A stretch of DNA of 64,000 nucleotides, taken from positions 65,184 to 129,183 of the forward strand of contig OZ253484.1 of assembly GCA_965261825.1 (NCBI GenBank), written 5' to 3'. This document shows positions 1,274 through 63,842 of this stretch, one piece after another. The translations under genes were made by a program, and so were the position numbers. The notes under the pieces are model-generated. The model was not told where the DNA came from. It saw only the letters and a list, made by a program, of their open reading frames with translations, and did no database searches. This DNA is from Dehalococcoidia bacterium. GTDB lineage: Bacteria > Chloroflexota > Dehalococcoidia > Lucifugimonadales > QGNO01. Each line of letters begins with the position of its first letter. Within the stretch, counting starts at the first letter, position 1.

Positions 1274-1395
1274 ATAACGTACCTCGTGCCAGAACCTTGC
1301 GGCAAAACCTTGACACCGACTCAAGATTTTGGTAGAATCCTCTTGGGCCTGGAGAAAGTGCATCCAGAGTACTAAGGTTAATCAGGAGGAGATAA

Positions 1396-2532: not shown

Positions 2533-2534
2533 AA

Positions 2535-17440: not shown

Positions 17441-18841
17441 TCATGGCGGGCTGGCCTGCCCGAAGGTATCTTCTCCCCAGCATTCGATGCTGCCGTCCGG
17501 TCGCAGTCCACAGCCATGATTCCTGCTCACGCTGAATGCCTCGAATGGGCCGGGCGGCGGCCAACCATCAGGCGAGCCAGAACCCCAGCACCCTGTGGAG
17601 CCTTCGTACCACAACGCGCACGAAAAGCGCTGGCCGCTGTCTATGATCTTGCGGCTGCCGTCCGGCACGCTGTCCGGGTCCCCTCCCCACGCTCTGTAGG
17701 CTTCGTTTACCCTCTCATCCGTCCAGCATCGGCTGGTGCCGTCGGCTTGCGGCTCGCAGATCTGGATCTCCCCATCCGGGCCCCCGACGATACTTCCCCA
17801 GCACCTTATTTCCCCATCGGGCCTGAACCCGCAGGTATGGTAGCCACCGGCGCTGATCACCTCGAACGGGCCGTCTGGCGGCGTCGCCTGGCCTAGAAAA
17901 TCGCCGTCGAACCCTGAATTGCTGCCCCAGCAGACGACGGTCTGGTCGATACGGATTCCGCAGGCATGGAATCCACCCGCGCTGACGGAGGTGTATTTCC
18001 CATCCGGCGGGGTCGGCGCGCCCGCAACGACGGCCAGGCCCCAGCACTCCGCGCTGTTGTCGATCCTCACCCCGCAGGAGAAATGGAACCCCGCGCTTAC
18101 CGATATGAACCGGCCTTCAGGGGGTGCCAACATAGCCTCCATCATGGCCTTTGCCTCAGGAGGCGAATCATCCTGAAAGAGATCCTCAACGAGCATACCG
18201 CCCCAACACTCCACCGTTCCGTCCCGGCGCAGAGCGCAGGAGTGGAGGTCTCCGGCACTGATCTGGGAGAAGGTCCCGGGAGGCGAGTCGATCAGCCCGG
18301 TGGCCTCCGTGAGGCGGTCGTCCTCCCCGCTCGCGCCCCAGCAGACGATGCTCCCGTCCGCCCGCAGCCCGCAGCTGTGGAACAGGCCGACGGAGACCTG
18401 GACGAACGGACTGTTGGGGTCACCGGCCGGTCTGATTTCCGTCGTGACTCCGGTCTGGCTTCCGGTTGCTAGGAGCGGCGTTGCTTTCGCGGTTTCCTGG
18501 GAAGGGGCTGGCATCAGGACAGCAGGAGGTTCCCCATCTGCATCCGGTGCTGTTGGCAAGGGAGTAGCGTGCTCCACTGCTTGAAGAGGAGGCGTTTGGA
18601 GCGGTTCTGCCCCCCGCGTGGGTATTGACCCCGAGGACAATTCCCTGGGTTCGGCTGCTGGCCCGCAGGCCGCAAATACCACAGCCAACATGGCCCCGGC
18701 TGCCAGCAGGGTTCTCAGGAGTTGCTGACGTCGGTTGGCTGGGTGGCGACTGTGCTGTCTTTGCAAAACTGAGCTTCCTAGAGGAGAGTTCCTGCAGCTG
18801 GAAGTTTCATTGAAGATATATAACCTTTGCCAACTGGTCAA
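17441..18841 (-). CDS. secreted RCC1-repeat (beta-propeller) protein
   Basis: Seven repeats of the xHxCGLRxDGxxxCWG type (GLFHSCGLRADGSIVCWG, DLHSCALRRDGTVECWG and others). N-terminal lipobox-like AVVFAAC. Start uncertain. Confidence 0.8.
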   Translation of the reverse strand: MTSWQRLYIFNETSSCRNSPLGSSVLQRQHSRHPANRRQQLLRTLLAAGAMLAVVFAACGPAAEPRELSSGSIPTRGAEPLQTPPLQAVEHATPLPTAPDADGEPPAVLMPAPSQETAKATPLLATGSQTGVTTEIRPAGDPNSPFVQVSVGLFHSCGLRADGSIVCWGASGEDDRLTEATGLIDSPPGTFSQISAGDLHSCALRRDGTVECWGGMLVEDLFQDDSPPEAKAMMEAMLAPPEGRFISVSAGFHFSCGVRIDNSAECWGLAVVAGAPTPPDGKYTSVSAGGFHACGIRIDQTVVCWGSNSGFDGDFLGQATPPDGPFEVISAGGYHTCGFRPDGEIRCWGSIVGGPDGEIQICEPQADGTSRCWTDERVNEAYRAWGGDPDSVPDGSRKIIDSGQRFSCALWYEGSTGCWGSGSPDGWPPPGPFEAFSVSRNHGCGLRPDGSIECWGEDTFGQASPP

Positions 18842-21148: not shown

Positions 21149-23281
21149 TCACCTGCAGCCGGCCACCCGCGGCGACGCAAAAGCCCGCTCGGCGCTGTGC
21201 CCAGTTTGCCCGCCTGTGCTGGGTGCGGGGGACTGCAAATAGAGGACGACGATACCCATCGCCTCTCCCAGGGTGATAGTGTCCTCGAAGTAGGCGGTGA
21301 CCGCCGCGATGGCCTCGTCCCGGTCGATCGTCTCGTTGCGGTCCGCGTCGTAGTCGTTGCCTTTGCCCGGCAGTTCCACGTTGGTCACGCGGATGGTCAC
21401 GGTGACGGCGGCGTCCACGGCCGCGTCGGGCTCGCCGTTGAAGTCCCTGCTGTCGCGGACCGAGACGGTGATCGAGTAGGCGGCCTGGGCCTCGTAGTCC
21501 AGGGGAGAGTTGCTCCGCAGCTGGCCGGAGGACACGTCGATCGTGAAGAACTCGGCGTCGGTGCCGCTCAAGGAGTAGGTCAGCGGGTCGCCGTCGGGGT
21601 CCGTGGCGGTGACCGGGTCGCCGATGTTGACGCCCGCGGCAGTGTCCTCGGACACGGATCGGGTGGCGCTGTCTCCCTCGGTGAAGGCGGGTGCGCTGTT
21701 TCCTGACGGAGACGGAGGCGACGGCGACGGCGTCCTCCTCGCCGTGACCGTGATGGTCACATCTATAGAATCATCCAATGCAGGGGAGGGGGCGTACTGT
21801 TGGTCGAACCCATCGTGGACTTCCACCGTCACGGTGTACGTGTTCTGCCCCTGTGGATCGTGGAGGAGGACAGACTTCGTCTGCAGCTGGCCGGTTCTCG
21901 GGTCGATGTCGAAGGAGTCGGCGTCCGACCCGCTCAGCGAATAGATGAGCACGTCATCGCGGTCCGCGTCCCTCGCCCTCACGGCAGCGCCGATGGAGCG
22001 GCCTAGCGCTGTGCCCTGGCTAATGGAGCGGGTGTCCGTGGTATCCGCAAACTCCGGCGTCTCATTCGTTGTGGGCCTGTCGGCTGCGTCGGCGATACGC
22101 GCGGTCAGCACGGCCTCAGCTGTCTTGCCGCTGCCCCGGTTGTCCGTGTACTCGGTACTGATCCGCAGGTAGTTGCCGACGTCATCGGCGGTCGCGGTGT
22201 AGGCGCTCGACGTTTCGCCGCTGATGTCCGTCCAGCTCGATCGGTTGGTGGACCGTGCCCATTGCCAGGTCTGGTCCACCAAGCTGCCGTCGCCGTCGGT
22301 CAGGCCGGCGCTGAATTGGGTGCCGGTCCAGCCCCGCGGCGGGGTGATTGTGACGGCGCCCTCTTCCTCCACGTCCGTCACGTCGAACGTTCCGGTCAGG
22401 TCGCCTTCGTCCGTGGCGACGACGGTCACCTCGTAGGTGTCCTTGCCGCCCTCGAAGCTGGGCGGCGACGCGAAGTGCAGGCGACCTTGCGTGGTCATCA
22501 CAAAGTCATTGCCGTCAGTCCCCGATACGGACCAGGTGAGCTTGTTCCGCTCCGGGTCTCTGCCGGTGTAGGTCGCGATTGCCCTGCTGCCGTTCTCCGT
22601 GTAGGTCGCCGTGGCATCGCCCGACACCGTCGGCGCCTCGTTCAGGTCTGTCACGTTGATGGAGACGTTAATCGTGTCGTCAATGACGTCGTTGTCATCG
22701 TCGCCGTTCCGGTCCCTGCCGTCGGTGACCTCCACCGTGACGCGGTAGGACCGCTTGCCCTCGTAGTCCAGGTCCACATTTTGCGCCAGCGCAAGCTGCC
22801 CGCTGCTTGCATCTATGGTGAAGGAACCGGCGTCCGTCCCGGTCAGCGAATACATGAGGGGGTCGTTCACCGCAGCGTCGCCGACGTTCAGATCGGTGGC
22901 GACAACGGGGTCGCCGATGTCATCGCCGCCGCTGGCGTCTTCCGCAACCTCGCGCCGGCCGTTCTCCGTCGACGGGAAAGCGGGCGGCGAGTTCACCGGC
23001 GGCGGCTCTTCAACGCTACGCGGCGACACCCCATGGGCGGTCTTGACTGTCACCGAGTTCGGTTCGGTCAGCGAGTATGTCGCCGCCCCGAACTCCACTT
23101 TCACCTCCGGGTCGTCGTCGTCGTCGTCGATGCTGACCTTCGTCGACGACGTGCTGCCCGCGCTTACTCCCGGTGGGAACGTTCCGAAGGCCAGCTTGAT
23201 CTTCTCGTCGTCGTCGTCAATGTCGTCGTCCGTAGGGGTGAAGGAGATGGTCTTGGACGTGTCCCCGCTAGCGAAGGTCAC
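21149..23281 (-). CDS. cadherin-like repeat segment of the large surface protein
   Basis: 710-aa ORF with about 6 repeats of the NxAPxF...Y(S/T)L(S/T)G(T/S)DAxxF(T/D)ID...G(Q)L type and DxNDxxP linkers. Dockerin/EF-hand-like DYDADRNETIDRDEAI near the end. Confidence 0.75.
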   Translation of the reverse strand: MTFASGDTSKTISFTPTDDDIDDDDEKIKLAFGTFPPGVSAGSTSSTKVSIDDDDDDPEVKVEFGAATYSLTEPNSVTVKTAHGVSPRSVEEPPPVNSPPAFPSTENGRREVAEDASGGDDIGDPVVATDLNVGDAAVNDPLMYSLTGTDAGSFTIDASSGQLALAQNVDLDYEGKRSYRVTVEVTDGRDRNGDDDNDVIDDTINVSINVTDLNEAPTVSGDATATYTENGSRAIATYTGRDPERNKLTWSVSGTDGNDFVMTTQGRLHFASPPSFEGGKDTYEVTVVATDEGDLTGTFDVTDVEEEGAVTITPPRGWTGTQFSAGLTDGDGSLVDQTWQWARSTNRSSWTDISGETSSAYTATADDVGNYLRISTEYTDNRGSGKTAEAVLTARIADAADRPTTNETPEFADTTDTRSISQGTALGRSIGAAVRARDADRDDVLIYSLSGSDADSFDIDPRTGQLQTKSVLLHDPQGQNTYTVTVEVHDGFDQQYAPSPALDDSIDVTITVTARRTPSPSPPSPSGNSAPAFTEGDSATRSVSEDTAAGVNIGDPVTATDPDGDPLTYSLSGTDAEFFTIDVSSGQLRSNSPLDYEAQAAYSITVSVRDSRDFNGEPDAAVDAAVTVTIRVTNVELPGKGNDYDADRNETIDRDEAIAAVTAYFEDTITLGEAMGIVVLYLQSPAPSTGGQTGHSAERAFASPRVAGCR

Positions 23282-24929
23282 GCTGTCGGGAACGCTGAAG
23301 TCCGCTGAGGTGCCCCCGCTCTCGCCGGTGCCGGCTATGGGTTATGGTCACCGACCGCTGGGGGTCTGCGCTCAGCGTCACCGTCACGTCCACCGAGTCT
23401 CCCTCGTCCGCCGAGTAGGTGGCCGCGCCGAATGTGACCGTCACCGCCGGGTCGTCATCGATGATGGTGACAGTGGTCGTGCGGTTGGTGGATGCCAGGG
23501 TCACGCCCTGGGGCAGGTCCGACCCAAAGGCCAGCCGGACTCTCTCCCCGTGGTCGGCGACGGTGTCCTCGGTAACGCTGAAGGAGAAGGTCTGCGTCGT
23601 GTCCCCGCTGTTGAAGGTCACGCTGGTGGGGTCCGTGTAGTCATCCGTGGACGTGGCGCCTCCCTGGCCGGTGGCGGTTACGGGTATGGTCACCGACCGC
23701 TGCGGGTCCGCGCTCAGCGTCAGCGTCACGTCCACCGAGTTGCCCTCGGTGACGGAGTAGGTTGTTGAGTCAAATTCGACGGTAACCGCCGGATCGTCAT
23801 CGATGAAGGTCACCGTGATCTCACCGTTGGAGCCGGCGCTCACCCCCGGCGGCAGGTCCGACCCGATAGCTAGCTTGACGCCCTCTCCCCGTTCGACGAG
23901 AGTGTCTTGGTAGATGTCAAATGTGATGTTCTTGGACGTGTCTGTGGCGCTGAAGGTCAAACTGTAGGATGCAGCAGCGTTGTGGTCTCCCCGAGTGCCG
24001 CCGCCCTGGCCAGTGACGGTTATTGGAATGGTTACCGGGCGCATCGGGGCTTCGCTCAGATTCACGGTCACGTTCCCACGCCCACCCTCGGCAACCTCGG
24101 ACGTGGCCACGGAAAAGCTGACGGTGACCGCCGGGTCGTCGTCGATGATGGTGACGGTGGTGGTGGTCGTGCCGCTCGCCGTTACGCCCGCCGGCAGGTC
24201 TCCGAACCCCAGCAGGACACTCTCGCCGTGGTCTTCGTCCGTGTCCTGTAGGGCGGCGAATCGGAATTCCGCTTCCGTCTCATCTTCGTGGATGTTCCCT
24301 GCTTCGCGGAATGTGTAATCCGCCGCCTCGGCCCCGCCCTGATGCGTCGTCGTAAAGGGAATGCGGACGCTGCGCTCCGGGTCCGCGCTCAGCTTTACAA
24401 CAATAGCTATACCGTCTTCTCCCTCGTCCACCGAATAGGTAGCGGCGCCGAAGCTGACCGTGACATTCGGGTCATCGTCGTCGGTGATCGAAACGGTGCT
24501 CTCCGCCGTGGTGCCCTCCGTTACGCCCGCCGGGAGCGTGCCGAAGCTGAGCTTCACCTTGTCCTCGTCATCGTCAGCAGTGTCCGCGGTCGCGGTGAAG
24601 GTAAACGTTTTCTCCGTGTCGCCGCTGGCGAAAGTGACGTTGGCCGGCACACCCGAATAGTCGCTGTTTGTTGCGCCGCCCTCGTTGGTCTTCGTGATCG
24701 GGATGACCACTTCACGCTCGGGATCCGCGCTCAGCGTGACTGTCACCTCGACCTTGTGCTCTTCCTCATCCATCGTCGTGTCATCGTCGGTTTCCGCGAC
24801 GGTGTACGTGCTCTGCTCGAATTCGACGGTGACCGCAACCGGGGTCTGCGCCTGCGCGGGCAGCGTAAGGGTCAGGACGTACAGGAGGGCTAGCCCCAAC
24901 CCAAAGGACAATAGTGTGGAACGGACCAA
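23268..24929 (-). CDS. Calx-beta repeat segment of the large surface protein (with signal peptide)
   Basis: Signal peptide LALLYVLTLTLPAQAQ, then 5-6 Calx-beta-like units (VTVSFGAATYSVDEGE...V.LSADPERSV.IP). The last unit breaks frame near 23335 and continues in the 21149..23281 ORF. Confidence 0.75.
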   Translation of the reverse strand: MVRSTLLSFGLGLALLYVLTLTLPAQAQTPVAVTVEFEQSTYTVAETDDDTTMDEEEHKVEVTVTLSADPEREVVIPITKTNEGGATNSDYSGVPANVTFASGDTEKTFTFTATADTADDDEDKVKLSFGTLPAGVTEGTTAESTVSITDDDDPNVTVSFGAATYSVDEGEDGIAIVVKLSADPERSVRIPFTTTHQGGAEAADYTFREAGNIHEDETEAEFRFAALQDTDEDHGESVLLGFGDLPAGVTASGTTTTTVTIIDDDPAVTVSFSVATSEVAEGGRGNVTVNLSEAPMRPVTIPITVTGQGGGTRGDHNAAASYSLTFSATDTSKNITFDIYQDTLVERGEGVKLAIGSDLPPGVSAGSNGEITVTFIDDDPAVTVEFDSTTYSVTEGNSVDVTLTLSADPQRSVTIPVTATGQGGATSTDDYTDPTSVTFNSGDTTQTFSFSVTEDTVADHGERVRLAFGSDLPQGVTLASTNRTTTVTIIDDDPAVTVTFGAATYSADEGDSVDVTVTLSADPQRSVTITHSRHRRERGHLSGLQRSRQRDLR

Positions 24930-39052: not shown

Positions 39053-40858
39053 TTGGGCGACCTATCCAACCTGGAGAGACTAGTGCTGAGCCGCAATCAG
39101 TTGACTGGCGAAATCCCTGTCAGTCTAACCGAACTCGCGGACCTGCAATACCTGGCACTTAAAGAGAACAATTTGACTGGGAATATGCCAAAGGGGTTGG
39201 GCGACCTCATTCGACTGAAATGGATAGAGCTCCAAGTAAACAAATTGACCGGGAGCATCCCAGAGGAACTTGGAAACCTAGTTGATCTGCAATCGATAAT
39301 CCTAGTCGACAATAGGCTTTCCGGACGGATTCCGCCGACCCTCGGTAAACTTAGCAACCTACGGGAATTGTCGTTAGGTAGCAATGAGTTGACTGGAGAG
39401 ATTCCCCAATCATTCGGAGACTTAACCGAACTCGGGTATCTGTCACTCGACAATAACATGCTAAGTGGGGAGATTCCAGCGACGCTGGGCGAGCTTACCA
39501 AACTACGGGCATTGTATCTGAACGACAACGAGTTGACGGGAGAGATTCCAAGAGCACTCGGAGACTTGACCAGACTCCAGTATATTCAGCTCCAGAATAA
39601 TCAGCTAACCGGGGAGATCCCAGTCGAACTCGGGGACCTGGTTGAGCTGAGGCTGCTGAACTTGGAGGACAATAGGCTTAGTGGAACTATACCGCCTGAA
39701 TTGGGCAGGCTCGCCAATCTTTGGGGATTGTCCTTGGGCGCGAATCAGTTGACTGGCGAGATCCCGGCGACCATCGGCGGTTTGATGAATTTGATATCTT
39801 TTGGGGCGTCAAGCAATCTTCTGACCGGTTGCGTGCCGCTCGAATTGAGTCGATTTGAGGGCCATGCCTTCAACAATACTAACCTCAGGTTCTGCTTCGC
39901 AGTGGACGACAATTCGACCATCGTAGATTCTGCGGCTCTATTGACGATGGCAGAGGGAAGTGGCATTAGGATAGAAGAGTCGGTACTGTTGGCCAACGAC
40001 ATGGAAACAGAGAACTACACCCTCCGCATTACGAACGTTGGAGACGCGGTGAATGGCACAGTTTCGCTGGAGGTGTCTACAGTTGTCTTCTTGCATGACG
40101 GCTCGGAGACGACCTCAGGCAGCTTTGACTACACGGCCAGCGACGGCGTCCATTCCTCCACCACCACGGTGACCCCTGTCAACGACCCTACCGTCACGGT
40201 TGGTGACACGGCAACGGTAGCTGAGGGAGATACCCTGTCTATCGAGGCGTCAGTGCTCCTGGACAATGACACCGACGCGGAGAACGACACGCTAGGCATC
40301 ACTTCGGTCGGCGATGGGGTCAACGGAACGGTCTTGCTGGACGGGATGACGATCACCTACGAACATGACGGCTCGGAGACGACCTCAGGCAGCTTTGACT
40401 ACACGGCCAGCGACGGCGTCCATTCCTCTACCGCCACGGTGACCATCACGGTGACTCCTGTCAACTACCCTCCCGTCACGGTTGGTGACACGGCAACGGT
40501 GGCTGAGGGAGATACCCTGTCTATCGAGGCGTCAGTGCTCCTGGACAATGACACCGACGCGGAGAACGACACGCTGGGCATCACTTCGGTCGGCGATGGG
40601 GTCAACGGAACGGTCTTGCTGGACGGGATGACGATCACCTACGAACATGACGGCTCGGAGACGACCTCAGGCAGCTTTGACTACACCGTCAGCGATGGGA
40701 GAGACACCTCCACCGCCACGGTGACCATCACGGTGACTCCTGTCAACGACGCTCCCGTGGTGCCATTGGTCGCGCTGGCACTTGGTGCCGGAGTGCTGAC
40801 TGCGGTCGTATTGTTGGCATTCAGAGTGAGAAGGAGAAGTTCCAGTCAGCTCTCCTGA
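39053..40858 (+). CDS. LRR (plant-type 24-residue) + cadherin-like repeat surface protein, C-terminal TM anchor
   Basis: About 10 units of LxxLxxLxLxxNxLTGEIPxxLGxL. Three VNDxP...YTASDG cadherin-like units, two of them near-identical at DNA level. TM LVALALGAGVLTAVVLLAF + RVRRR. Confidence 0.75.
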   Translation: MGDLSNLERLVLSRNQLTGEIPVSLTELADLQYLALKENNLTGNMPKGLGDLIRLKWIELQVNKLTGSIPEELGNLVDLQSIILVDNRLSGRIPPTLGKLSNLRELSLGSNELTGEIPQSFGDLTELGYLSLDNNMLSGEIPATLGELTKLRALYLNDNELTGEIPRALGDLTRLQYIQLQNNQLTGEIPVELGDLVELRLLNLEDNRLSGTIPPELGRLANLWGLSLGANQLTGEIPATIGGLMNLISFGASSNLLTGCVPLELSRFEGHAFNNTNLRFCFAVDDNSTIVDSAALLTMAEGSGIRIEESVLLANDMETENYTLRITNVGDAVNGTVSLEVSTVVFLHDGSETTSGSFDYTASDGVHSSTTTVTPVNDPTVTVGDTATVAEGDTLSIEASVLLDNDTDAENDTLGITSVGDGVNGTVLLDGMTITYEHDGSETTSGSFDYTASDGVHSSTATVTITVTPVNYPPVTVGDTATVAEGDTLSIEASVLLDNDTDAENDTLGITSVGDGVNGTVLLDGMTITYEHDGSETTSGSFDYTVSDGRDTSTATVTITVTPVNDAPVVPLVALALGAGVLTAVVLLAFRVRRRSSSQLS

Positions 40859-40895
40859 GCCCACGACAGTTGTCAATCAGCAATAGCGGGACAGA

Positions 40896-42119
40896 ATGGG
40901 ATCCGAGAGATCAGAATCGACCAAGGGTCTCGAATGCTTCTCTAGAAGGGGTAGGCTACGGCCTATGAGGCACTGGAGGCCCGTTCGAAAGGTAGGCTGT
41001 CTGCTGCTTGTGGGGATGCTGGCGGTTGTTTTGTCGATTGCCTGCGACAGAAGGTCGTCGACGCCTACCCCCACACCAACAGTCACGCCGACGCTTCAGG
41101 ACCAGCTACTTCAGGAGCTTGTGACAGCTAGAGCTACGGCTACAGCATCAACGCCAACCCCTACACCCGAGCCAGAAAGCCGTATCTACCATTCCATTGC
41201 AGGAGAGCGCCTTGTCGCCATTGGTGCCGGATGGCAACACACATGCGGCTTGAGGGCAGACGGTTACACGCTTTGTTGGGGCGTGGGCAACATATACAAC
41301 GATGGCCAGATCCGCCCTCCCAAGGATGAGTACTTTCGTTCCATCAGCGTCGGGCCCTCTCATACCTGTGGGCTGCGGCTAAACGGTACAGCTGTGACCG
41401 GAAGCATACCCGCGGACTTGGGACGCCTTGCGAACTTGCAGAGGATGTACCTCAGCTTCAACGAACTGAGTGGACAGATACCGCCAGAGTTGGGCGGACT
41501 GGCAAGTATTGTCGGCCTAAGGGTCAGTGGAAACAACTTGACCGGGGTTATTCCAGCCGAGCTTGCCGAGCTCCAAGGGCTGGAGACGTTGCACTTGGAT
41601 TCCAATAACCTTACTGGAAGAATTCCCGGAGCCTTGGGTAACCTCAAGCGCCTCCGCTGGCTGGAACTTGGGTATAACAATATTGAGGGGAAGATACCTA
41701 AGGAACTAGCAAAACTTGAGCAATTGCAGATACTTGGCCTGGGATCCAACCAACTCACTGGAGAGATCCACCCCGAGCTTGCCAGTTTGGCTAGGCTAGG
41801 TTCGCTAAAGCTGAGAGGGAACAGCCTTACTGGCGAAATCCCGTCTGAGTTATCACAGTTGCAAACACTGTCGTATCTTGATCTTGCCCACAATGCGCTA
41901 ACCGGTGAGATTCCACGCTCCCTGGCCGACTTGACGGCCTTGAGACATCTGGATCTCGGGGATAACCAACTTACGGGAGCCATTTTCTCCGGTTTAGCTC
42001 GGTTGCCACACCTTGATCGGCTCTACCTCAGCGGCAATGCATTCACTGGGTGCATCCCGCGGGAGGCATCGGAGGTTCCACATAACGATCTGAACGATCT
42101 TGGCCTGCCAACTTGCTGA
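40896..42119 (+). CDS. RCC1-repeat / LRR chimeric lipoprotein
   Basis: TM/lipobox LAVVLSIAC, PT linker, two RCC1-type units (WQHTCGLRADGYTLCWG, PSHTCGLRLNGTAV), joined directly to 11 LRR units (TGSIPADLGRLANLQRMYLSFNELSGQIPPELG...). Confidence 0.7.
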   Translation: MGSERSESTKGLECFSRRGRLRPMRHWRPVRKVGCLLLVGMLAVVLSIACDRRSSTPTPTPTVTPTLQDQLLQELVTARATATASTPTPTPEPESRIYHSIAGERLVAIGAGWQHTCGLRADGYTLCWGVGNIYNDGQIRPPKDEYFRSISVGPSHTCGLRLNGTAVTGSIPADLGRLANLQRMYLSFNELSGQIPPELGGLASIVGLRVSGNNLTGVIPAELAELQGLETLHLDSNNLTGRIPGALGNLKRLRWLELGYNNIEGKIPKELAKLEQLQILGLGSNQLTGEIHPELASLARLGSLKLRGNSLTGEIPSELSQLQTLSYLDLAHNALTGEIPRSLADLTALRHLDLGDNQLTGAIFSGLARLPHLDRLYLSGNAFTGCIPREASEVPHNDLNDLGLPTC

Positions 42120-46857: not shown

Positions 46858-47059
46858 GCGGTCCGCCTTCCTGCTCGCAACAGTGGCAATGTGGAATGAA
46901 ATGTCCCAGTACGGATGTTAGATAACGTATTACTGTTCATTCAACAAACACAATAGTCATCTTGCAACCACATCCACAATCTTATCACTCAGAGACATAT
47001 CATCCAAAGGTGGTTCTGATTGACATCCCATCTGAGGTATGCTCAAGGTGACCCGCAGG

Positions 47060-47337
47060 CCCGCTCACTCCTTTCGGCTGTGCTCAGGGTAAACTTAAAG
47101 CTCAGGGTGAGCGGGGGTGCGCGATGCTCAGGGTGAGCGGAAGTCCATACCCCACCACTCCTGGATTCCCGTCTTCACGGGAATGACGGTGTGGGGTGCC
47201 CGCTCACTCCTTTCGGCTGTGCTCAGGGTAAACTTAAAGCTCAGGGTGGGCGGGGGTGCGCGATGCTCAGGGTGAGCGGAAGTCCATACCCCACCACTCC
47301 TGGATTCCCGTCTTCACGGGAATGACGGTGTGGGGAG
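47060..47337. repeat. two tandem copies (period 139 bp) of a composite REP unit
   Basis: CCCGCTCACTCCTTTCGGCTGTGCTCAGGGTAAACTTAAAGCTCAGGGTGAGCGGGGG...CCTGGATTCCCGTCTTCACGGGAATGACGGTGTGGGG restarts at 47060 and 47199. Confidence 0.85.
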
Positions 47338-47340
47338 TGG

Positions 47341-47616
47341 CTAGATGAACAGCGGGCCAAAGACAAGGGATACTATAGCCATGAGCTTTATCAGGATATT
47401 GAGGGACGGTCCGCTGGTGTCCTTGAACGGGTCGCCTACGGTATCACCGACCACGGCGGCGTGGTGAGTATCCGAGTCCTTGCCGCCGAAGTTCCCCAGT
47501 TCTATGTATTTCTTGGCGTTGTCCCAAGCCCTCCCGGCATTGGCCATGGTGATAGCGAGGAGGAATCCGGCGGAGATGGCTCCTATGAGCAGGCCGACCA
47601 GGGCCTCAGCGCCCAT
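47341..47616 (-). pseudogene. orphan 3' fragment of hppA (last 91 codons)
   Basis: Differs at 6 of 91 residues from the C-terminus of the full hppA at 49128..51170. Has no upstream coding continuation. Confidence 0.85.
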
Positions 47617-47648
47617 GAGGCTATGGGGGCTTTGGTGAGCGTGGTCAT

Positions 47649-48944
47649 CTAGACCGCCAACCGATCCCTGCCCAAGACGAAGGACCCTAAATCAACGGGA
47701 CGTCCCTCTAATAGGCATCTTATAGGTACGGCGAACATCCCGTCCCCAAATCCTGCGCCAACCTCGCCGTCATATACCACCACCCCGGCCACGAAGCGAT
47801 CGCCCGCAGCCTTCTTCAACTTCCGCAACCCGCGAAAGTCAGACTGCGTTACGGTGGCCGCCGCCTTCACTTCTACGCCGGCCACCTCTCTCGCTCCGCG
47901 CTCGATGACGATATCGACCTCTACCTGGTCCCTGTCGCGGTAGTGGAAGAACTCCAGGGGCGTCTCCTGGCATATGGACTGACGTCTTAGTTCCTGGAAC
48001 ACGAACGATTCCAAGTATTGACCGAGCAGTTCGCGATTCTGTGCAAGGTCACGGGGACCGACTCCAATCAGGGCGCATGCAAGACCGGTATCCCCTATAT
48101 GGAGCTTGGGCGTCTTGACCAAGCGCCTCAACTGGTTGGCGTGCCATGGCGGCAGTCGGTCTACAAGAAACAACCGTTCCAGCAGCGTCACGTAGTCGCC
48201 GATGGTAGGTCGGCTCAACTGGAAGAGGGATGCCATATTCGACAGGTTATAGAGTTGAGCGGTCTGCAATGCTGCGGCAGTCAGTAGCCGGGGCAGTGCG
48301 TCAAGTGTGCTGATCCTGGCCATGTCCCGCACGTCCCGCTGGAGCTGCGTGTCGATGAAGTTACGGTACCAGTTTGCCCGGCGCCGGGAGGTGGGACGGG
48401 CCAGCGCCTCTGGATAGCCGCCGCAGGCTATACGTTCTGCCAGCTCATCGGCAAGACGCTGGAAGGTGGACGTCTTGAACTCCCCGCGAAACAGGTCGTC
48501 TAGGAAGTTGGGGATGCCGCCGAACAATTCGCCCTGGGAGAGAGGGTGCAGCCGCAGTATCTCCATCCGGCCAGCCAGCGAATCGGCAAGGGCCGGCACG
48601 AGCAGTACCTGGGACGAACCGGTGAGCAGGAAGCGCCCGGGAGCGCGGCGACGGTCTATCTCCTGTTTCAAAGCGGTGAAGAGAGAGGGAACTCGCTGCA
48701 CTTCGTCGAGGATTGCATGCTCCGGTAGCCCGGCGACGAAACCCGCGGGGTCGGCGTTGGCAGCATTACGGGCGACGTCATCGTCAAAGCTGATATAGCC
48801 GTAGCCCATGGAGTCGCCGACCAGCCGGGCAAGGGTGGTCTTGCCGCACTGGCGCGGCCCGTGCAACAGCACAGCCGGCGAGTCGGACAGCGCTTCGACC
48901 AGAGGTCCTTCGGCGTAGCGGGAATAGAGGAGAGATGACTGCAT
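47649..48944 (-). CDS. AAA+ ATPase (AAA_14 + DUF4143 type)
   Basis: 431 aa. Walker [13 protein letters not shown], Walker B AILDEVQ. The C-terminal half is typical of the DUF4143/COG1373 family. Confidence 0.8.
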
Positions 48945-48950: not shown

Positions 48951-49027
48951 ATTGTAACTTTATAGTGCGTCTAATTGCAAGATATTGTTCCGTCTGATTG
49001 CAACTTTAGACAGCGTCTAATTGAAAG
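48951..49027 (-). promoter_or_regulatory. AT-rich phased repeats upstream of the ATPase gene
   Basis: CGTCT(A/G)ATTG at 48968, 48991 and 49014 (23-bp phasing), within two 31-bp direct repeats ATTG(T/C)AACTTTA....GCGTCTAATTG(C/A)AAG at 48951-48981 and 48997-49027. Confidence 0.45.
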
Positions 49028-49127
49028 ACATGGGTTATGTCGCCACCTCACCAGCCTTGGCAACAGCGCATCCCGCTGGTACGGTCCTGGATTCCCGTCG
49101 GCACGGGAATGACGGTGTGGGGAGTGG

Positions 49128-51170
49128 CTAGATGAACAGCGGGCCAAAGACAAGGGATACTATAGCCATGAGCTTTATCAGGATATTGAGCGACGGTCCG
49201 CTGGTGTCCTTGAACGGATCGCCCACTGTATCACCAACCACGGCGGCGTGGTGAGTATCCGAGCCCTTGCCGCCGAAGTTCCCCAGTTCTATGTATTTCT
49301 TGGCGTTGTCCCAAGCTCCCCCGGCATTGGCCATGGTGACGGCGAGAAGGAATCCGGCGGAGATGGCTCCTATGAGCATGCCGCCCAGGGCCTCAGGGCC
49401 CATGAGGGCGCCGACGGCTATGGGCGCAACGATGGCGACGAGCCCGGGCAGGATCATCTCGCGGAGTGCGCCGCTGGTGCTGATATCCACGGCGCGGGCG
49501 TAGTCGGGGCGGCCCGTGCCTTCCATAATGCCGGGGATCTCGCGGAACTGCCGCCTCACCTCTTCGATCATCTTGTTGGCGGCACGGCCCACGGCCTGCA
49601 TGGTCATAGAGGAGAAGACAAAGGGAAGTACCGCGCCAATGAGCAGTCCCAGCAGGACTTTGGTTTCTAGTAGATCAAGAAGGTCGAGGCCGGCGACCTG
49701 CGAATAGGCGACCATAAGGGCGAGAGCGGTAAGGACGGCGGAGCCTATGGCGAAGCCTTTGCCGGTGGCGGCGGTTGTATTGCCCAGAGCGTCTAGGGCA
49801 TCCGTACGCTGTCGGACCTCGGGAGGAAGGCCGGCTTGCTCCGCAATGCCGCCGGCGTTATCGGCTACGGGCCCGTAGGCGTCGGTGGCCAGGGTGATGC
49901 CAAGGGTGGAGAGCATACCCACTGCGGCCAGGGCAATGCCGTAAACGCCAGCCAGGGCATCTGCTATCCAGATGCCCGCCACAACAGCAGCTAGCGGCAC
50001 CACGGTGCTGAGCATGCCAAGGCCAAGGCCGCCGATGATGACGGTAGCGGGGCCGGTCAGGGCCTGCTCGGATAGCTTCTTGGTGGGGCTGTATTCGTAG
50101 GCGGTGAAGTACTCGGTGGCGAACCCTATTACCTGTCCCACCACCAGACCGACCAAGACAACCCAAAACAGCTTGAAGTCGAGACCTAGAATGGCGATGG
50201 CTACGGCGGTGCCTATGAGAACTAGTCCACCGGCGGAGTAGATGCCGGTGCGAAGGGCCCAGAGCAATCTTCCCATGGTGGCATTCTCTCCGGTGCGGAC
50301 AAGGAATGTGCCCAATATGGATGAGACGATGCCTATTGAAGCGACGAGAAACGGGAGCACGAAGCGTGCTCCGTCGAAGGAATCGCTTGAACCGCTGAAA
50401 ACGACAGCGGTTGCTCCCAGGGCGATGGCGGCGATGATAGAGCCGACGTAAGATTCGAAGAGGTCTGCGCCCATACCGGCTACGTCACCAACGTTGTCGC
50501 CTACGTTGTCGGCGATGGTGGCCGGATTACGCGGGTCGTCCTCCGGTATGTTCTGCTCCACCTTGCCCACGAGGTCCGCGCCGACGTCGGCGGCCTTGGT
50601 GAAGATACCGCCTCCGACACGGGCGAAGAGGGCGATGGATGATGCGCCAAAGCCAAAGCCGGCGACGATGTTGGCGTCTTGGAAGATCCAATAGAGGGCG
50701 GCGACGCCAATGATGCCTATTCCCACTACGGTTATGCCCATTACGGCGCCGCTGTTGAAAGCTACGCGGAGACCCGGGTTGAGGCCCTGAGCAGCGCCAG
50801 CGGTGGTGCGAGTGTTTGCCCTTACCGCGATGTTCATGCCGATAAATCCGGCCAGACCGGAGCCAATGGCTCCAACCAAGTATGAGATAGCGGTGGAGGG
50901 CAATGAGCGGTCAGAGCCGACTTTATCCAGGACGTCGTAGTCAATGAAGACAGCGATGATCACCGCGATGACTATGACAAAGGCGGCGAGGATGCGGTAC
51001 TCACGCTTGAGGAAGGCCATGGCCCCTTCCTGGATGGCTTTGCCGATATCTTGAACGGTCTCATTGCCGGCGCTTTGGCGGAGGACCCTGGTGATGAGAT
51101 AGACGGAGAAGAGTAATGCGACGATTCCTACGGCAATGGAAGCAGCGATGAGCTCTGGATAGGTTTCCAT
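49128..51170 (-). CDS. hppA: membrane-bound proton/sodium-translocating pyrophosphatase
   Basis: 680 aa, polytopic. Motifs [53 protein letters not shown]. Confidence 0.95.
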
Positions 51171-57018: not shown

Positions 57019-57811
57019 GCGCGTCTCCCGCTGGTTGGTTGTGCAGGGTTTGGGTAGAGAGTATCACCGACGGCCGTTGTGAACAACCGTTGGGGAAGTT
57101 GGCATGCAATGACGAATGGCTTGGGATTCTTCGTCGCTGGCGCTCCTCAGAATGACAGATGGGTTGCGGTAGGGCCCCACGCCCCTGGATTCCCGTGTCA
57201 AGCACGAGAATGACGTTAAGAGGGGTCCCTAGCGTCCTTTCCCTTCTACTATGCTCAGGGTAGACTTCCGGTTCAGCAACTGTCTTGGCCTAGTGGGGCA
57301 TAAGATTCCCTGTGCTCCTCAGACATTAGGCATGGAAACGATGTAAAAAGGGTCTTGGTATCACTTTTGATACCTGCCGTACCACGCTCCGGGCTCTCTC
57401 GACCGCTTGCGGGGTGGAGGATTACGGCTGGGCTGGAGTGCCAGTTGTTCCAAAAGTCTGAGGGCTTGTCTCCCTCAGGCGGTAAGTGCCGAGTGCAGCC
57501 TGTGAGGAATGCCATTTTCTCGGGAACAAATGCAGCGCCTTGACGACTAATTTCTCAAAGCGCCGATCTTCAGGAGTCCTCGCGCTGGGAGGCGGTTTGC
57601 TAGCGAGTTCTCCGTTCTCTGCGTGAAGAGCTAATCATGATTCCTGGTATTGGGGATTTGCATTTTTGCACTTCCCGCGTGTGCGCGTTCCACTCTGTCT
57701 GTCTGTCTATCTTGTCTTTCAGTCTTCCGGATGATACTTTGTTTCGGCGGTCGAGTTGGAGAAGCCGCTTCGCCCACTCGCCGATTCGTCGCGATACCGC
57801 ATCACCTCGGT

Positions 57812-58219
57812 CTACGTAGCTGATAGCGGAACCCCTTCTGCGACGGCGGCTTGGCCAAGTGGCCCGTCAAGTGTCGCGAGCTCTGCACCCTCCCTCTTGG
57901 CTAGTTCCAGGTAAAGGGCGTCATACAGAGACAGTCCATGTACCCTCGCCAAGGCGAAAGCAGATTGAAGGTCGGAGTCCTCGTCAGTGGTGATGGGTAG
58001 GCCCTTCAAGGCGTCCAAGCGTTCCTTGACTTCCCCCGACGAGAGGCGACCACGCCGCTCAGCCGTGAGCAAGGAGTTACGCGTCGACAGATGCCAGAAC
58101 TGTGGCACAAGTGCCCCGTCCTCCGCAAGTTGCTCCAGAACCCTATCTGCGCGCGGCTCGTCCTCATCGTCGAAGAGCCACGCTACTACGACCGAGGCAT
58201 CGACAACTAGTCCGCTCAT
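57812..58219 (-). CDS. vapC: PIN-domain toxin VapC
   Basis: From ATG 58217-58219: MSGLVVDASVVVAWLFDDED...LYDALYLELA...LATLD (PIN acidic residues). The start overlaps the antitoxin stop (ATGA). Confidence 0.8.
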   Translation of the reverse strand: MSGLVVDASVVVAWLFDDEDEPRADRVLEQLAEDGALVPQFWHLSTRNSLLTAERRGRLSSGEVKERLDALKGLPITTDEDSDLQSAFALARVHGLSLYDALYLELAKREGAELATLDGPLGQAAVAEGVPLSAT

Positions 58220-58467
58220 AGACGGTGACCTTCGTGGCGTGCCGTGAGTATCTCGTCCGTCGAGAAAGCAACGCGCCTCCACCCGGCGCGGCGCTCCCGA
58301 AAGCCCTCTATTGCCCTCTCGCGGCTAGCGCGGTCCCGAGCGTCGGCGGGAACCAGGTGCGCTACCGCCCTGCCATGTCGAGTTATGACGACGGTCTCTC
58401 CATGCTCGACCGCCCGAAGGAGTTCGGCCAAGCGCGTCTTGGCTTCAGTAGCCTGAATCTCACGCAT
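58216..58467 (-). CDS. Phd/YefM-type antitoxin
   Basis: MREIQATEAKTRLAELLRAVEHGETVVITRHGRAVAHLVP is a typical Phd/YefM N-terminus. Confidence 0.75.
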   Translation of the reverse strand: MREIQATEAKTRLAELLRAVEHGETVVITRHGRAVAHLVPADARDRASRERAIEGFRERRAGWRRVAFSTDEILTARHEGHRL

Positions 58468-58717
58468 ATTTGACTCCAACCTGTTGTTTTGACCATACCA
58501 TGTTACCCAAGTGCCACTATCCGAGTCAAGACAGTTGCTTTTCGCTGGGAGGTCGCTGCGCTCCTCAGAATGACAGGGTAGGGGTGGGTGCTTTCCTCGC
58601 TCATTCCCCTTCCCTTCGACTATGCTCAGGGTAAACTTCAGGCTCAGGATGAGCGGGGGTTGTTTAGAATGACAGATGGGGGATTCCGGGGCAGGGTCTT
58701 AAGTGGGAGAGGAGGGG

Positions 58718-60772: not shown

Positions 60773-61687
60773 CTACCTGGTTCGCCTCGTTTGCAGTACG
60801 TAAGCGCCGCCTGCCACCACAAGGAGGAGTCCCGCCAGCATCATGGTAACGAGTGCTCCGGAGCCGGGCGAAAAGTCGCCGGCAGGTGGGGGTACGGGGG
60901 TAGGAGTAGGTCTAGGAGTACGTTCGGGCGGGGGCCAGGGATATGAAGGCCCGACCACCACAGCCTCATTGATACTTGTCCCCTCATGGAGGGTTAACAA
61001 GTTGCCGTCGACATCAAAGAACAGAAGCCTAAACCCAGTTGGCTCCGCTCTAAGATTGCTCACTGTCAGGCCCAGCACCCTGTCGGTAGGCAGGGAGGCC
61101 TGGGTAGGGAGCTTGAGGTTCATAGCGGGTTGGTGGTCGCCGCGCTGTCGCGGGCTGTAGACAGGGTACACCTCTATGGCGACCACCGGAGCGGAAAGGC
61201 CGCTGTCGGGGAGCTTGACTTCGACTAGCGCCTGGTTGCCCCGTATCTGGTGCTTCCATCCTAGGTCGCTTGGGACCAGGTCTTCGGCGCCTTCCGGCTC
61301 ATCCGAAGTGACCAATACCGCATCGGCAGAGTCCAGAACATTCAGTGTGACATCGGGATCTTGTAGAATGCCGTCATCGTCTAATGCAACTACAAGGTCA
61401 GACACCTTCACGGCGGTGATGACGCCTTCATCGGGAGCGTCCACGGTCTGTGTTAGGTCCCCAACGCTTATTTCCACTTTCGCTGCATCTCCTTTGACAG
61501 TGAGGACCATTACCACCCAGAGGTCTGCCGTGGTTCCATTGGAATCAAACGCCTGGTCCCAACTGATATCGGGAGCGGGAGGGGTTTGGGCGTTGACTCT
61601 TTGCAGGCCGTAGAATGTGAAGAGTAGGCCGAGAAACAGGACGATTCCTACTGCCAGTATGGGGATTCGGTTTTTGGCTAGCACCAT
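60773..61687 (-). CDS. hypothetical surface protein with N-terminal and C-terminal TM segments
   Basis: N-terminal IPILAVGIVLFLGLLFTF, PT-rich linker PRPTPTPVPPP, C-terminal LVTMMLAGLLLVVAGGAYVL + RRTR. Confidence 0.5.
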   Translation of the reverse strand: MVLAKNRIPILAVGIVLFLGLLFTFYGLQRVNAQTPPAPDISWDQAFDSNGTTADLWVVMVLTVKGDAAKVEISVGDLTQTVDAPDEGVITAVKVSDLVVALDDDGILQDPDVTLNVLDSADAVLVTSDEPEGAEDLVPSDLGWKHQIRGNQALVEVKLPDSGLSAPVVAIEVYPVYSPRQRGDHQPAMNLKLPTQASLPTDRVLGLTVSNLRAEPTGFRLLFFDVDGNLLTLHEGTSINEAVVVGPSYPWPPPERTPRPTPTPVPPPAGDFSPGSGALVTMMLAGLLLVVAGGAYVLQTRRTR

Positions 61688-62020
61688 TGCAGGCTACCTC
61701 CGGGGGTTGGACCCACTAATATGAATGATTACTAAAATAGCAACAGGAGCTCACCCTTCTTCACAGGGCGGACGGCAAACTCCGTTGGAATGCTAGCATT
61801 GAGCTTGCCTCAGTGTCAAGCGTTCAGGTACGGAAACGGGAGGAAATATGCGGACATACGGAAATGGGGCAGGGGAAGGGGCTGGCTCTCGGCCCCGGCT
61901 TGCCTCTAAACCACCTCTGGCCGTGGATGCCCGTCGCCACGGGCATGACAGAAGGGGGCGCGGGGACGGAAGGGACGTGCGGGCATGACGGTGAGGGGCG
62001 CAGGGATGATGGGTGCACGG

Positions 62021-62125
62021 CTAGGAGACGCCCTTCTGCATCAAGTAATCGTGGAGGCGTTCCAGCGTTTTGCGGTTCTCTTCCAGGGGGAATCCGTCCA
62101 CGGCGTAGGCGCGCTTCACCTTGAC
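62021..62125 (-). pseudogene. orphan 3' fragment (34 codons) of the DUF4392 gene
   Basis: VKVKRAYAVDGFPLEENRKTLERLHDYLMQKGVS* versus FKVERTYAVDGFPLEENRETLERLHDYLMQQGVS* at the end of 62991..63842. Confidence 0.75.
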
Positions 62126-62185
62126 ACTAGTGCTGTTTTAACCTAGTCTGATGGCTAGTCAGTACAATGGATAAAGAGGTTAACC

Positions 62186-62446
62186 ATGAGCAAGAGATGG
62201 CCGGTTCAGGATGCCAAATCGAGATTTAGCGAGCTTCTGGACACCACCCTCGCGGAAGGGCCACAGATTGTAACCAAGCGAGGTGTGGAAGCCGCCGTGC
62301 TCCTTCCCATTGAGCAGTGGCGGAGGCTGGAGCGGATGACGAGACCGGATCTGAAAGAGTTGCTGCTTGCCCCTGAGGCACGAACCGAGACCCTTACGTC
62401 GCCGCGCCAGCAGCACCGCCGCCGCCCACCCGTAGTAGTGGAGTAG
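62186..62446 (+). CDS. type II antitoxin (Phd/YefM- or VapB-like)
   Basis: MSKRWPVQDAKSRFSELLDTTLAEGPQIVTKRGVEAAVLLPIEQWRRL. Lies 3 nt upstream of the PIN gene. Confidence 0.75.
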   Translation: MSKRWPVQDAKSRFSELLDTTLAEGPQIVTKRGVEAAVLLPIEQWRRLERMTRPDLKELLLAPEARTETLTSPRQQHRRRPPVVVE

Positions 62447-62449
62447 CCT

Positions 62450-62857
62450 ATGTACCTCTTGGACACCAACGTGGTTTCGGAGCTGCGTCGCCCCCGACCG
62501 CATGGCGCAGTTCTGAATTGGATTGCAGACGCACCGGCGGAGCAGCTCTTTGTGTCTGCCGTTACGGTTGGCGAGATACAGGCGGGGATCGAGATCACCC
62601 GTGAGCAGGATGAAGCCAAGGCTGAGGAGTTGGGAGCGTGGCTGGACAAGGTACTGGCTTCCTACGGCATACTCCCAATGGATGCGCTCGCCTTCAGAGA
62701 GTGGGCGCGGCTGATGCACGGGAGATCAGGCGCTATGACCGAAGACGCCATGATAGCGGCGACAGCCATGGTTCACAGGTTGACGGTGGTCACTAGAAAC
62801 GTGGCCGACTTTGACGACCTTGGTGTTGACTATGTGAATCCGTTTGGAAGTGGATAG
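62450..62857 (+). CDS. vapC: PIN-domain toxin VapC/FitB
   Basis: MYLLDTNVVSELRRP...VTVGEIQAGI...AMIAATAMVHRLTVVTRNVADF. Confidence 0.85.
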   Translation: MYLLDTNVVSELRRPRPHGAVLNWIADAPAEQLFVSAVTVGEIQAGIEITREQDEAKAEELGAWLDKVLASYGILPMDALAFREWARLMHGRSGAMTEDAMIAATAMVHRLTVVTRNVADFDDLGVDYVNPFGSG

Positions 62858-62990
62858 GCAGGCCAGCCCCCGCTTGCTCTAAGACCACCTCCGCCCCTGG
62901 ATGCCCGTCGCGACGGGCATCCAGGGGCGCGGGGACGGATAGGGACGCGCGGGCATGACGGTGAGGGGCGCAGGGATGGTGGGAACGCGG

Positions 62991-63842
62991 CTAGGAGACG
63001 CCCTGCTGCATTAAGTAATCGTGGAGGCGTTCCAGCGTTTCCCGGTTCTCTTCCAGGGGGAATCCGTCGACGGCGTAGGTGCGTTCCACTTTGAAGCCGT
63101 CCACAGCGCCGACATCTACCATTTGCTTGATGACCTCTTCTTCTTCCTCCGGCGAGGGCAGTAGATTCTGCTTCGCCTGCAGGGAGAGGCCTGCTATGAG
63201 ACCGGAAGCGCCCCAGTTGGAGACGCTGGCCAGGATCAGCTTGTCGGTGGGAACTATGGTGGGCTGCTTGGGCAGGGTATCGATGGTGGGGATCTGTTCG
63301 GCCAGCTTGCCCATGCCTATCTCGTTGCCGCCGTCTCCTATGCCCACGGTGGCGTTGTGGTCGAGCACGAGATAGTCCGCCCTGGCGTTGTACTGCGAGA
63401 TGTCGACGCCCCGCATGTTCAGATATTCGCCCTTCTGAGTCACGCCGCAGCGTTCGGTGGATATGACGATGGACGGCTTCAAGTCGCCCAGGAGCTCCCG
63501 GGCAAACTTCCGGCTAGAGTCTTCGTCCGTAACGGGGAATTCAATCACTTCGCCCACGTCTGAAAGGCAGTTGTAGAGAGACGAGCTAAACTCGTCGGTA
63601 ACGTGTGTGACGTCGTAACCAAGCTGTTGCAGCGCTTTACCGATGAAATAAGCGCCCGGGGGGCCGTCGGTCTCCGAAGCCATGGCTCCTATTATGAAAA
63701 AGCCGCTGATGACGAAGGCGCGTCCCGGGTTGCGCAGGATCAGTTGCGCCGCGTCTTCGCAGTAGTCTTCGGGGAGGTACCCACGCAGCTTGGATATTCC
63801 CCTCTGGTCACGGTCAAGGATGATGTCTTCTATAACGGACAC
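62991..63842 (-). CDS. DUF4392-family protein (D-glutamate cyclase-like, N-terminal-type domain)
   Basis: 283 aa. ETDGPPGAYFIGKAL, IGDGGNEIGMG, SVSNWGASG motifs as remembered for DUF4392. Confidence 0.65.
   Translation of the reverse strand: MSVIEDIILDRDQRGISKLRGYLPEDYCEDAAQLILRNPGRAFVISGFFIIGAMASETDGPPGAYFIGKALQQLGYDVTHVTDEFSSSLYNCLSDVGEVIEFPVTDEDSSRKFARELLGDLKPSIVISTERCGVTQKGEYLNMRGVDISQYNARADYLVLDHNATVGIGDGGNEIGMGKLAEQIPTIDTLPKQPTIVPTDKLILASVSNWGASGLIAGLSLQAKQNLLPSPEEEEEVIKQMVDVGAVDGFKVERTYAVDGFPLEENRETLERLHDYLMQQGVS

Follow-up and report, generated by a model that had tools for sequence, protein, structure and literature searches.

A chromosomal Phd/PIN toxin-antitoxin cassette between an intact DUF4392 gene and an orphan copy of its 3′ end in Dehalococcoidia

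A 64,000-nucleotide (nt) stretch of the genome of a Dehalococcoidia bacterium (NCBI GenBank assembly GCA_965261825.1, contig OZ253484.1, positions 65,184 to 129,183; hereafter the window) carries a small toxin-antitoxin (TA) cassette that lies between an intact DUF4392 gene and an orphan copy of the 3′ end of the same gene. The insertion is one old event that has been vertically inherited and fixed in a clade of Dehalococcoidia. We tentatively read the structure as a recombination scar, produced by in situ segmental duplication of the cassette, a spacer and the gene end and by later loss or replacement of the distal cassette, and give this reading slightly less than an even chance. Our analysis indicates that the locus is not a mobile element with integration machinery of its own and gives no sign of new molecular machinery; the most fitting class for it is a chromosomal Phd/PIN TA cassette bearing a segmental-duplication scar.

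Repeat structure, cassette and junction

The locus is bounded by two direct repeats (61892-62124 and 62866-63094) that are 88-91% identical and align over 235 columns at 88% identity (MAFFT, blastn). The repeat search divides them into two blocks, 61971-62124 versus 62941-63094 (154 nt, 91%) and 61892-61946 versus 62866-62920 (55 nt, 82%). Each copy has three parts, namely a hairpin similar to repetitive extragenic palindromic (REP) elements, two G-rich units of ~40 nt, and the last ~35 codons of the DUF4392 gene. The initial annotation had described imperfect repeats of this composition, and the repeat search, MAFFT and blastn all recovered them; details of the hairpins needed correction, since that of copy A (61921-61946) begins with CGTGG and that of copy B is a perfect 19+19 palindrome (62892-62929). 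In copy A, a non-coding part (61892-62020) is followed by the orphan 3′ end (62021-62119, minus strand), which comprises the last ~33 codons and the stop of the DUF4392/GLUCM-like_C gene and has no gene body upstream. The orphan was originally delimited at 62021-62125, and the five amino acid differences from the intact copy then reported are real (5 of 34 residues); the gene-derived part stops near 62119, and the final six nt, CTTGAC, match the cassette version. Copy B begins 9 nt past the stop of the toxin gene (vapC). Its non-coding part (62866-62990), which holds the palindrome and the G-rich units, leads into the intact gene (62991-63842, minus strand; PF14336 at E=2e-69), whose last 105 nt (62991-63095) form the coding portion of the repeat. 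Relatives of the DUF4392 protein are annotated as Dehalococcoidia/Chloroflexota proteins from metagenome-assembled genomes, the closest being 94% (P0001) and 78% (P0002) identical in amino acid sequence.

The 38-nt perfect palindrome of copy B is specific to the window strain and is missing from its relatives, two of which (L093 and L095) have at this position an ordinary 8-bp REP stem followed by GACAGAAG. It looks like the product of quasipalindrome-to-palindrome correction by intrastrand template switching.

The cargo between the repeats is 741 nt long, and a phd gene and a PIN toxin gene are the only genes in it. Both are on the plus strand, opposite to the DUF4392 gene, as had been noted at the outset. 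The first (62186-62446) encodes an 86-aa Phd/YefM-family antitoxin (PF02604, E=4e-15, 55.9 bits against a cut-off of 29.8; TIGR01552, 51.2 against 20.8) and directly precedes the second (62450-62857), with 3 nt between stop and start (TAG CCT ATG). The latter encodes a 135-aa VapC/FitB-like PIN-domain toxin (PF01850, E=1e-17, 65.3 bits against a cut-off of 23.6). Assignment of the toxin to the VapC equivalog NF047863 was rejected (43.9 against a cut-off of 140), and it remains a PIN/VapC-family protein. The pair had been named vapB-vapC, which is right for the PIN toxin and not for the antitoxin, a Phd/YefM protein by both profiles rather than an AbrB/MazE-type VapB. On the basis of these matches, the cassette is a putative type II TA system of an ordinary chromosomal kind. 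It resembles Phd/YefM-VapC(PIN) cassettes such as the FitAB-like ones in having two small adjacent genes with the antitoxin first, and the closest solved relative of the toxin is FitB (2h1c, E=3e-14); D5, E42 and D98 are conserved in the alignment of the two. It differs from FitAB in its Phd-type antitoxin, FitA being a ribbon-helix-helix protein, and in the fourth acidic position of the PIN domain, which aligns to Asn (TRN versus TRD in FitB). The window VapC is identical to a protein (P0121) found on 15 contigs.

The junction between orphan and cassette is particularly informative. The cassette has a native leader (62126-62185, plus strand) with repeated CTAGTC motifs and a TACAAT hexamer, which can be aligned with the leaders of related cassettes whose VapC proteins are 84-87% identical in amino acid sequence (L112-L125). 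These cassettes are found in other genomes, in contexts that are unrelated or rich in insertion sequences (IS); none is flanked by gene-end repeats, one is bracketed by IS copies, and their nucleotide similarity to the window spans 62111-62850. The intact gene reads TTCCACTTTGAAGCC (TTCCACTTTGAA) at the join site, the related leaders read TTCAGTCTTGACAC (TTCAGTCTTGAC) in L118-L125 and TTCAGTTTGACATC (TTCAGTTTGAC) in L112, and the orphan junction reads TTCACCTTGACAC (TTCACCTTGAC). This comparison places the join within a TTC..TTGA microhomology (gCTTCACCTTGACa, 62110-62126) and identifies the TTGACA that straddles it as native leader sequence of the cassette. Consistent with this, when strains are compared, orphan and intact copies of the 105-nt segment show fixed or nearly fixed differences at positions 100 and 105 alone, and every strain has the same junction. 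Such a junction is the signature of illegitimate recombination or template switching rather than of a recombinase core. As for the hexamers first noted in the leader, TTGACA (62121-62126) and TACAAT (62163-62168) are both present; they are 36 nt apart and do not pair, and a sigma-70 scan of the leader gave no canonical hexamer pair.

Conservation of the arrangement among relatives

All 24 loci with a VapC at least 96% identical to that of the window (L091-L111 and L248 among them) hold the cassette, and the 22 that are long enough to show the neighbouring gene all adjoin DUF4392, i.e., they represent the same locus, with flanking genes 91-98% identical in nucleotide sequence to those of the window. 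A check for presence and absence in the population, as suggested initially, revealed no polymorphism: every relative with at least 91% nucleotide identity in the flanking genes (L001, L091-L111 and L248) is occupied, and empty sites are found only at 78% amino acid identity or less. A single event is implied by the junction, which is the same in every strain, and by fixation of the insertion in lineages whose flanking genes are 91-98% identical in nucleotide sequence. The arrangement is not an assembly artefact, because L091-L111 and L248 come from several samples and assemblers; the same structure recurs in more than 20 independent metagenome assemblies, and the concern that it might vanish on reassembly is thus removed. 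In the empty sites of the 78% relatives (L002-L007), DUF4392 is followed by 168 AT-rich nt and then by a membrane-protein gene, and the DUF4392 stop lies ~35 nt from a conserved TTGACA..TAGCAT promoter. The most divergent occupied locus is L001, in which phd is intact, vapC is internally deleted with its last ~80 nt left (L001 7600-8100), and the orphan retains 62 nt and carries a 1-nt deletion, a state typical of TA decay. A scan of metagenome contigs with DUF4392 recovered L031 (see below), gave only relatives of 60% identity or less, and yielded no close empty sites. One ENA contig (ctg820265, 3.9 Mb) holds both L102 and L111, two diverged ~12-kb copies of the locus at 1.53 Mb and 3.76 Mb, which represent either two strains joined in assembly or a very large duplication.

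The orphan coding part (~105-115 nt) and the leader junction are kept in every strain examined, truncated in L001, and the extent of copy A varies. Only window-like strains (L092-094, 096-098, 100) have the non-coding REP/G-rich part in both copies. In L091, L095 and L111 it has been replaced in copy A by other genes, and in the L101-L110 clade it is missing from both copies, so that a ~115-nt repeat is left and the spacers contain other REP types. In the window, the next gene beyond the orphan encodes a membrane protein of 304 aa (60773-61687, minus strand), with a promoter-like site at 61819-61790. Just past this promoter, from the equivalent of window 61825 to the orphan stop, lies a hotspot that varies among L091-L111 and contains, depending on the strain, a HATPase_c_3 protein (493 aa), a DUF2335 protein, open reading frames (ORFs) without a Pfam match or an rve-type IS. 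None of the hotspot genes has a flanking repeat of its own, and all are outside the repeat-bounded segment. They sit exactly where a distal copy of the cassette would have been.

These data bear on the possibility that the repeats are the attL and attR sites of an element without integrase that was integrated in trans, similar to cis-mobilizable elements, or that the locus is a decayed island which once had a recombinase of the tyrosine or serine type along with a replacement 3′ end, like e14 at icd/icdC. TA cassettes are typical last survivors of decayed islands, the site beside the orphan is a hotspot for variable genes, and the direct repeats include the 3′ end of the target gene, as in integrative elements. 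However, the repeat-bounded segment consists of the TA pair alone in all ~25 strains, with the variable genes outside it, and no occupied/empty polymorphism of the sort expected of an integrative element was seen among loci at least 91% identical in nucleotide sequence. None of the ~50 long ORFs of the window encodes an integrase, a transposase or a Y1 domain of the REP-associated transposase (RAYT) type. In addition, the junction is a microhomology with the cassette leader, and a 230-nt repeat with 130 nt of non-coding spacer far exceeds what restoration of the gene would need. Integration in trans is accordingly regarded as unlikely. The geometry itself is that of icd-e14-icdC in Escherichia coli K-12, in which, as outlined in PMC13626634 (citing Hill et al. 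1989), the cargo lies between an intact gene and an orphan C-terminal pseudogene, and recombination between icd and icdC removes e14 and leaves a chimeric functional gene. Both systems thus have a working gene with a duplicated 3′ end and cargo between gene and orphan. Unlike the locus described here, the prophage e14 spans 15 kb, encodes an integrase of its own and is excised on SOS induction, whereas the present segment measures 741 nt, has no recombinase, shows no excision polymorphism and has a microhomology junction.

Orphan (n=11) and intact (n=15) copies of the gene end were also compared with each other. They evolve in concert: at 13 sites both classes have the same pair of alleles and one site shows a fixed difference, identity between orphan and intact copies is 88-94% within a genome and averages 91% between genomes, and protein-changing alleles, e.g., RKT versus RET (K/E), occur in the orphan of some strains and in the working gene of others. 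The excess of shared polymorphisms over fixed differences indicates that the two ends exchange sequence by ongoing gene conversion. Since the copies convert each other, the age of the event cannot be read from the five amino acid differences, nor is the orphan passively decaying; dating from repeat divergence was dropped because conversion homogenises the copies. A diversity-generating retroelement was considered and rejected, as the differences involve all four bases and include shared polymorphisms, and no reverse transcriptase domain was detected in the long ORFs of the window.

The cassette itself has diverged little. In seven of eight strain comparisons, phd and vapC together have a synonymous divergence (dS) 0.14-0.5 times as high as the flanking genes DUF4392, lytB and inositol monophosphatase (Fisher p 0.02 to 4e-6; window versus L091-L111 and L001), and non-synonymous divergence of the cassette genes is ~0 across strains. 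Either gene flow of the cassette or unusual constraint could be responsible. A reduced dS is expected for between-strain recombination, and it is therefore in favor of the main alternative explanation, in which the gene 3′ end, spacer and cassette were imported from a related strain and the resident 3′ end was pushed downstream to become the orphan. Import might have involved a circle inserted by a single RecA crossover within the gene end (Campbell insertion), or a linear fragment with its homology anchor in the gene body and an illegitimate join at the other end (homology-facilitated illegitimate recombination, HFIR, or "3′-end displacement"). This explanation, which we consider doubtful though worth keeping in mind, predicts a repeat that extends from the join across the gene stop and the entire spacer to within 9 nt of the vapC stop, as seen, and it also fits the microhomology junction. 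Moreover, it places the orphan on the side of the membrane-gene promoter; the orphan stop of the window is ~200 nt from that promoter, compared with ~35 nt in the empty site of L002, because the REP/G-rich spacer of copy A intervenes. On the other hand, relatives closer than 78% amino acid identity include none with an empty recipient site.

A more general possibility is that small selfish genes (TA pairs and DUF4143 ATPases) of these REP-rich Dehalococcoidia behave as recombinase-free cassettes, each of which would use a copy of a host-gene 3′ end, whether or not a REP is included, as homology arm. When the repeats recombine, a circle made up of the cargo and one repeat would be set free, which could re-insert in related genomes by a single RecA crossover without gene disruption. 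Such behavior seems improbable to us; if it occurs, the two- to sevenfold lower dS of the cassette would be a trace of between-strain spread.

The hppA locus, L031 and REP-like hairpins

The initial annotation had likened the geometry of the TA locus (intact gene, small cargo, orphan 3′ end) to that of the hppA locus in the same window, and this is confirmed for both. At hppA, the direct repeats (47298-47620 and 49085-49407) are 323 nt long and 95% identical. The distal one belongs to a segment (47296-47620, minus strand) with an orphan hppA 3′ end of 91 codons (47341-47616) and a REP hairpin (47299-47326), and the functional copy (49083-49407) is part of a segment (49083-51170, minus strand) that holds a REP hairpin (49086-49113) and intact hppA (49128-51170). 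Between them lies an ATPase gene with AAA_14 and DUF4143 domains (47649-48944, minus strand; PF13173, PF13635). An exact look-up of this ATPase and of the window DUF4392 protein returned no matches.

Two relatives provide information about the history of this site. In L246, whose hppA is 95% identical in amino acid sequence, the same ATPase cargo is found in the same place (95% nucleotide identity) without an orphan and flanked by REP clusters, which is a state like that before a duplication. L247 has no ATPase gene; it keeps 86 nt of the ATPase leader, the neighboring aldo-keto reductase gene is truncated, and it resembles a deletion derivative more than a virgin site. Since L246 has cargo without an orphan and L247 keeps the ATPase leader, the cargo probably preceded the orphan at hppA and is likely ancestral at the site. 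With regard to import, L246 would be a possible donor configuration, but all three hppA relatives appear to have had the cargo ancestrally, which favors an in situ event. The REP hairpin that follows the hppA orphan has the same sequence as the one in the neighboring 139-nt REP-cluster unit, and its loop is not that of the hairpin after intact hppA; because of this match with the neighboring cluster, the distal boundary is suggested to have been formed by REP-REP recombination or switching. The 139-nt composite REP cluster is present in tandem at 47059-47335 (99% identical) and abuts the orphan. Furthermore, the 86 nt before the ATPase gene (window 48953-49038; L247 10095-10180) contain two ~40-nt direct repeats, CAATTAGACGC..TAAAGTTRCAA, and may be an operator or a recombination site.

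A self-blast of 248 sequences (the window and fetched loci, 1.72 Mb) for direct repeats of 90-600 nt spaced 0.3-6 kb apart detected 20 repeat pairs, of which 13 are in the TA and hppA loci, one is in L031 and six are at other loci. L031 has a distant DUF4392 homologue (54% amino acid identity) followed by an 88-aa ORF (antitoxin), a ParE-family toxin gene and a second copy of the gene end. This second copy comprises the last ~130 nt of the gene, an 80-nt spacer and the start of the 88-aa ORF; it shares 87% identity with the first at a period of 740 nt, and no REP occurs in the L031 repeats. The segment (L031 1056-2055) represents a tandem duplication of gene end and ParE-type TA that arose independently. 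Among the 70 loci of DUF4392 homologues with enough downstream sequence, only two have an orphan end, namely L001, which shares the event of the window, and L031. L031 is therefore a third case besides the two reported originally, so the geometry does recur; what is not supported is a dedicated mechanism that loads cargo behind gene ends, given that the TA locus is a single old fixed insertion, that the window long ORFs include no recombinase, that another TA pair of the window (57812-58479) is REP-flanked without an orphan, and that L246 has cargo without one.

This other pair, also Phd/YefM plus PIN, is located on the minus strand between an inositol monophosphatase gene and an epimerase gene and is bracketed by REP-type repeats (57136-57276 and 58554-58680). 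It is missing from L248 and L002, in which the two neighboring genes are adjacent.

The abundance of REP-like hairpins has to be considered as well. The pattern CCTGGRTKCCYGYCNNCRCRGGMAWGAC has nine matches in the 64 kb, all on the plus strand (7871, 47160, 47299, 49086, 51391, 51548, 51624, 54335 and 61922), versus none expected by chance, and at both window loci a hairpin lies no more than ~30 nt from the distal boundary of the repeat. The pattern is degenerate, and its exact matches, among those listed, come from many phyla and classes (Nitrospirales, Alpha-, Beta- and Gammaproteobacteria, Dehalococcoidia and others). Hairpins and a RAYT might have cut and joined the DNA and loaded cargo behind gene ends, and their number, their position at or near the distal boundary of both repeats, the REP-flanked pair at 57812-58479 and the L246 cargo between REP clusters could all be cited in support. 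Against this, the proximal junction lies within coding sequence at a microhomology and not at a REP, the repeats of the L101 clade and of L031 are without this REP, the REP content of both spacers turns over between clades, and the search for a RAYT or other recombinase that had been recommended found none in the long ORFs of the window. REPs may simply supply dispersed homology, and a REP/RAYT-driven origin has very little probability in our view. Use of the gene end or REP as an att site, as had been supposed, is not supported either: the REP is not a constant part of the duplicated unit, being absent from both copies in L101-L110 and from L031, and the join is shared with the cassette leader. 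An integron cassette was rejected too; the unit consists of a gene 3′ end and a perfect or near-perfect hairpin without attC-like architecture, no integrase is encoded by the window long ORFs, and an Rfam scan of the window matched no family.

Origin of the arrangement and known systems

If the structure is a scar of segmental duplication, the cassette would first have been located just downstream of the DUF4392 gene and convergent with it. An illegitimate exchange or template switch would then have joined the end of the cassette leader to codon -33 of the gene at the TTC..TTGA microhomology, and this join would have duplicated the cassette, the spacer and the gene 3′ end. The redundant distal cassette would later have been deleted or replaced, leaving the distal spacer and the orphan end beside the surviving cassette; an equivalent route would be two template switches, with a REP as the site of the second, and at hppA the distal step likely proceeded by recombination between REPs or by a further switch of template at a REP. 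The arrangement has since passed vertically through the clade, and the orphan and the gene end exchange sequence by conversion. The cassette would be lost cleanly if the repeats crossed over, and post-segregational killing would select against deletants, which plausibly helped the cassette to persist despite its flanking repeats. We infer the order of these steps, the loss of the distal copy and the stabilising role of addiction.

The scar model is supported by the pre-duplication-like state of L246, the full tandem state of L031 and the variable hotspot at the expected position of the distal cassette. It also draws on the junction microhomology, the single fixed event, the gene conversion, the dispensable REP and the lack of a recombinase among the long ORFs of the window. 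As in tandem duplications mediated by REPs or microhomology, the join is at a short homology and the units are head-to-tail, REPs can act as dispersed homology, and L031 offers the full form. Unlike in a full tandem duplication, the distal unit comprises gene end and spacer only, so a second deletion or a double template switch has to be assumed.

Several points weigh against this model. Its weak point is the deletion of the distal cassette, which is deduced only by analogy with L031, since no distal remnant was found: tblastn (E<=1) detected no degenerate distal phd or vapC copy in any strain, and no homology extends to the left beyond the repeat boundary. In L031, the contig covers only the first 260 nt of the second copy. 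A Campbell insertion or HFIR of imported DNA would give the same end structure, gene conversion has wiped out the donor/recipient signal in the repeats, and the low dS of the cassette could point to its horizontal exchange.

The closest precedent for import comes from Rhs, contact-dependent inhibition (CDI) and type VI secretion system (T6SS) effector-immunity loci, for which PMC5361080 (citing Jackson et al. 2009, PMC2935791) describes displaced 3′ fragments and small companion genes downstream of an intact gene. Such orphan immunity arrays have been explained by homologous anchoring and illegitimate joining without an integrase, i.e., by HFIR (PMC5361080), which is in line with import; the same source reports HFIR to be orders of magnitude rarer than homologous recombination, which speaks against it. 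A displaced 3′ gene fragment downstream of an intact gene is common to those loci and the present one. In Rhs/CDI/T6SS loci, however, the displaced tips are different toxin domains and the companions are cognate immunity genes, whereas here the gene belongs to a D-glutamate cyclase-like family (PF14336), the homologous tips stay similar through gene conversion, and an unrelated TA pair encoded on the opposite strand makes up the cargo.

If the segmental-duplication scar is the correct explanation, cargo can come to lie between copies of a gene end through ordinary illegitimate recombination, and such a scar mimics an integrative element and could be misclassified by island finders based on att sites. 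An orphan end, moreover, need not decay passively and could be a small reservoir of C-terminal variants, and a repeat-flanked TA cassette would be a natural test bed for addiction versus repeat-mediated deletion.

Elsewhere in the window, genes of defence type (a C5 DNA methylase, a DndB-like protein, an HhH-GPD/HTH protein and an AAA_21 ATPase) and genes for eukaryote-like repeat proteins (LRR, cadherin, Calx-beta and RCC1) are located in 74-3431, 8032-9384, 17441-18841, 21149-24929 and 39053-42119, the last of which includes 282-nt tandem repeats at 39890-40723.

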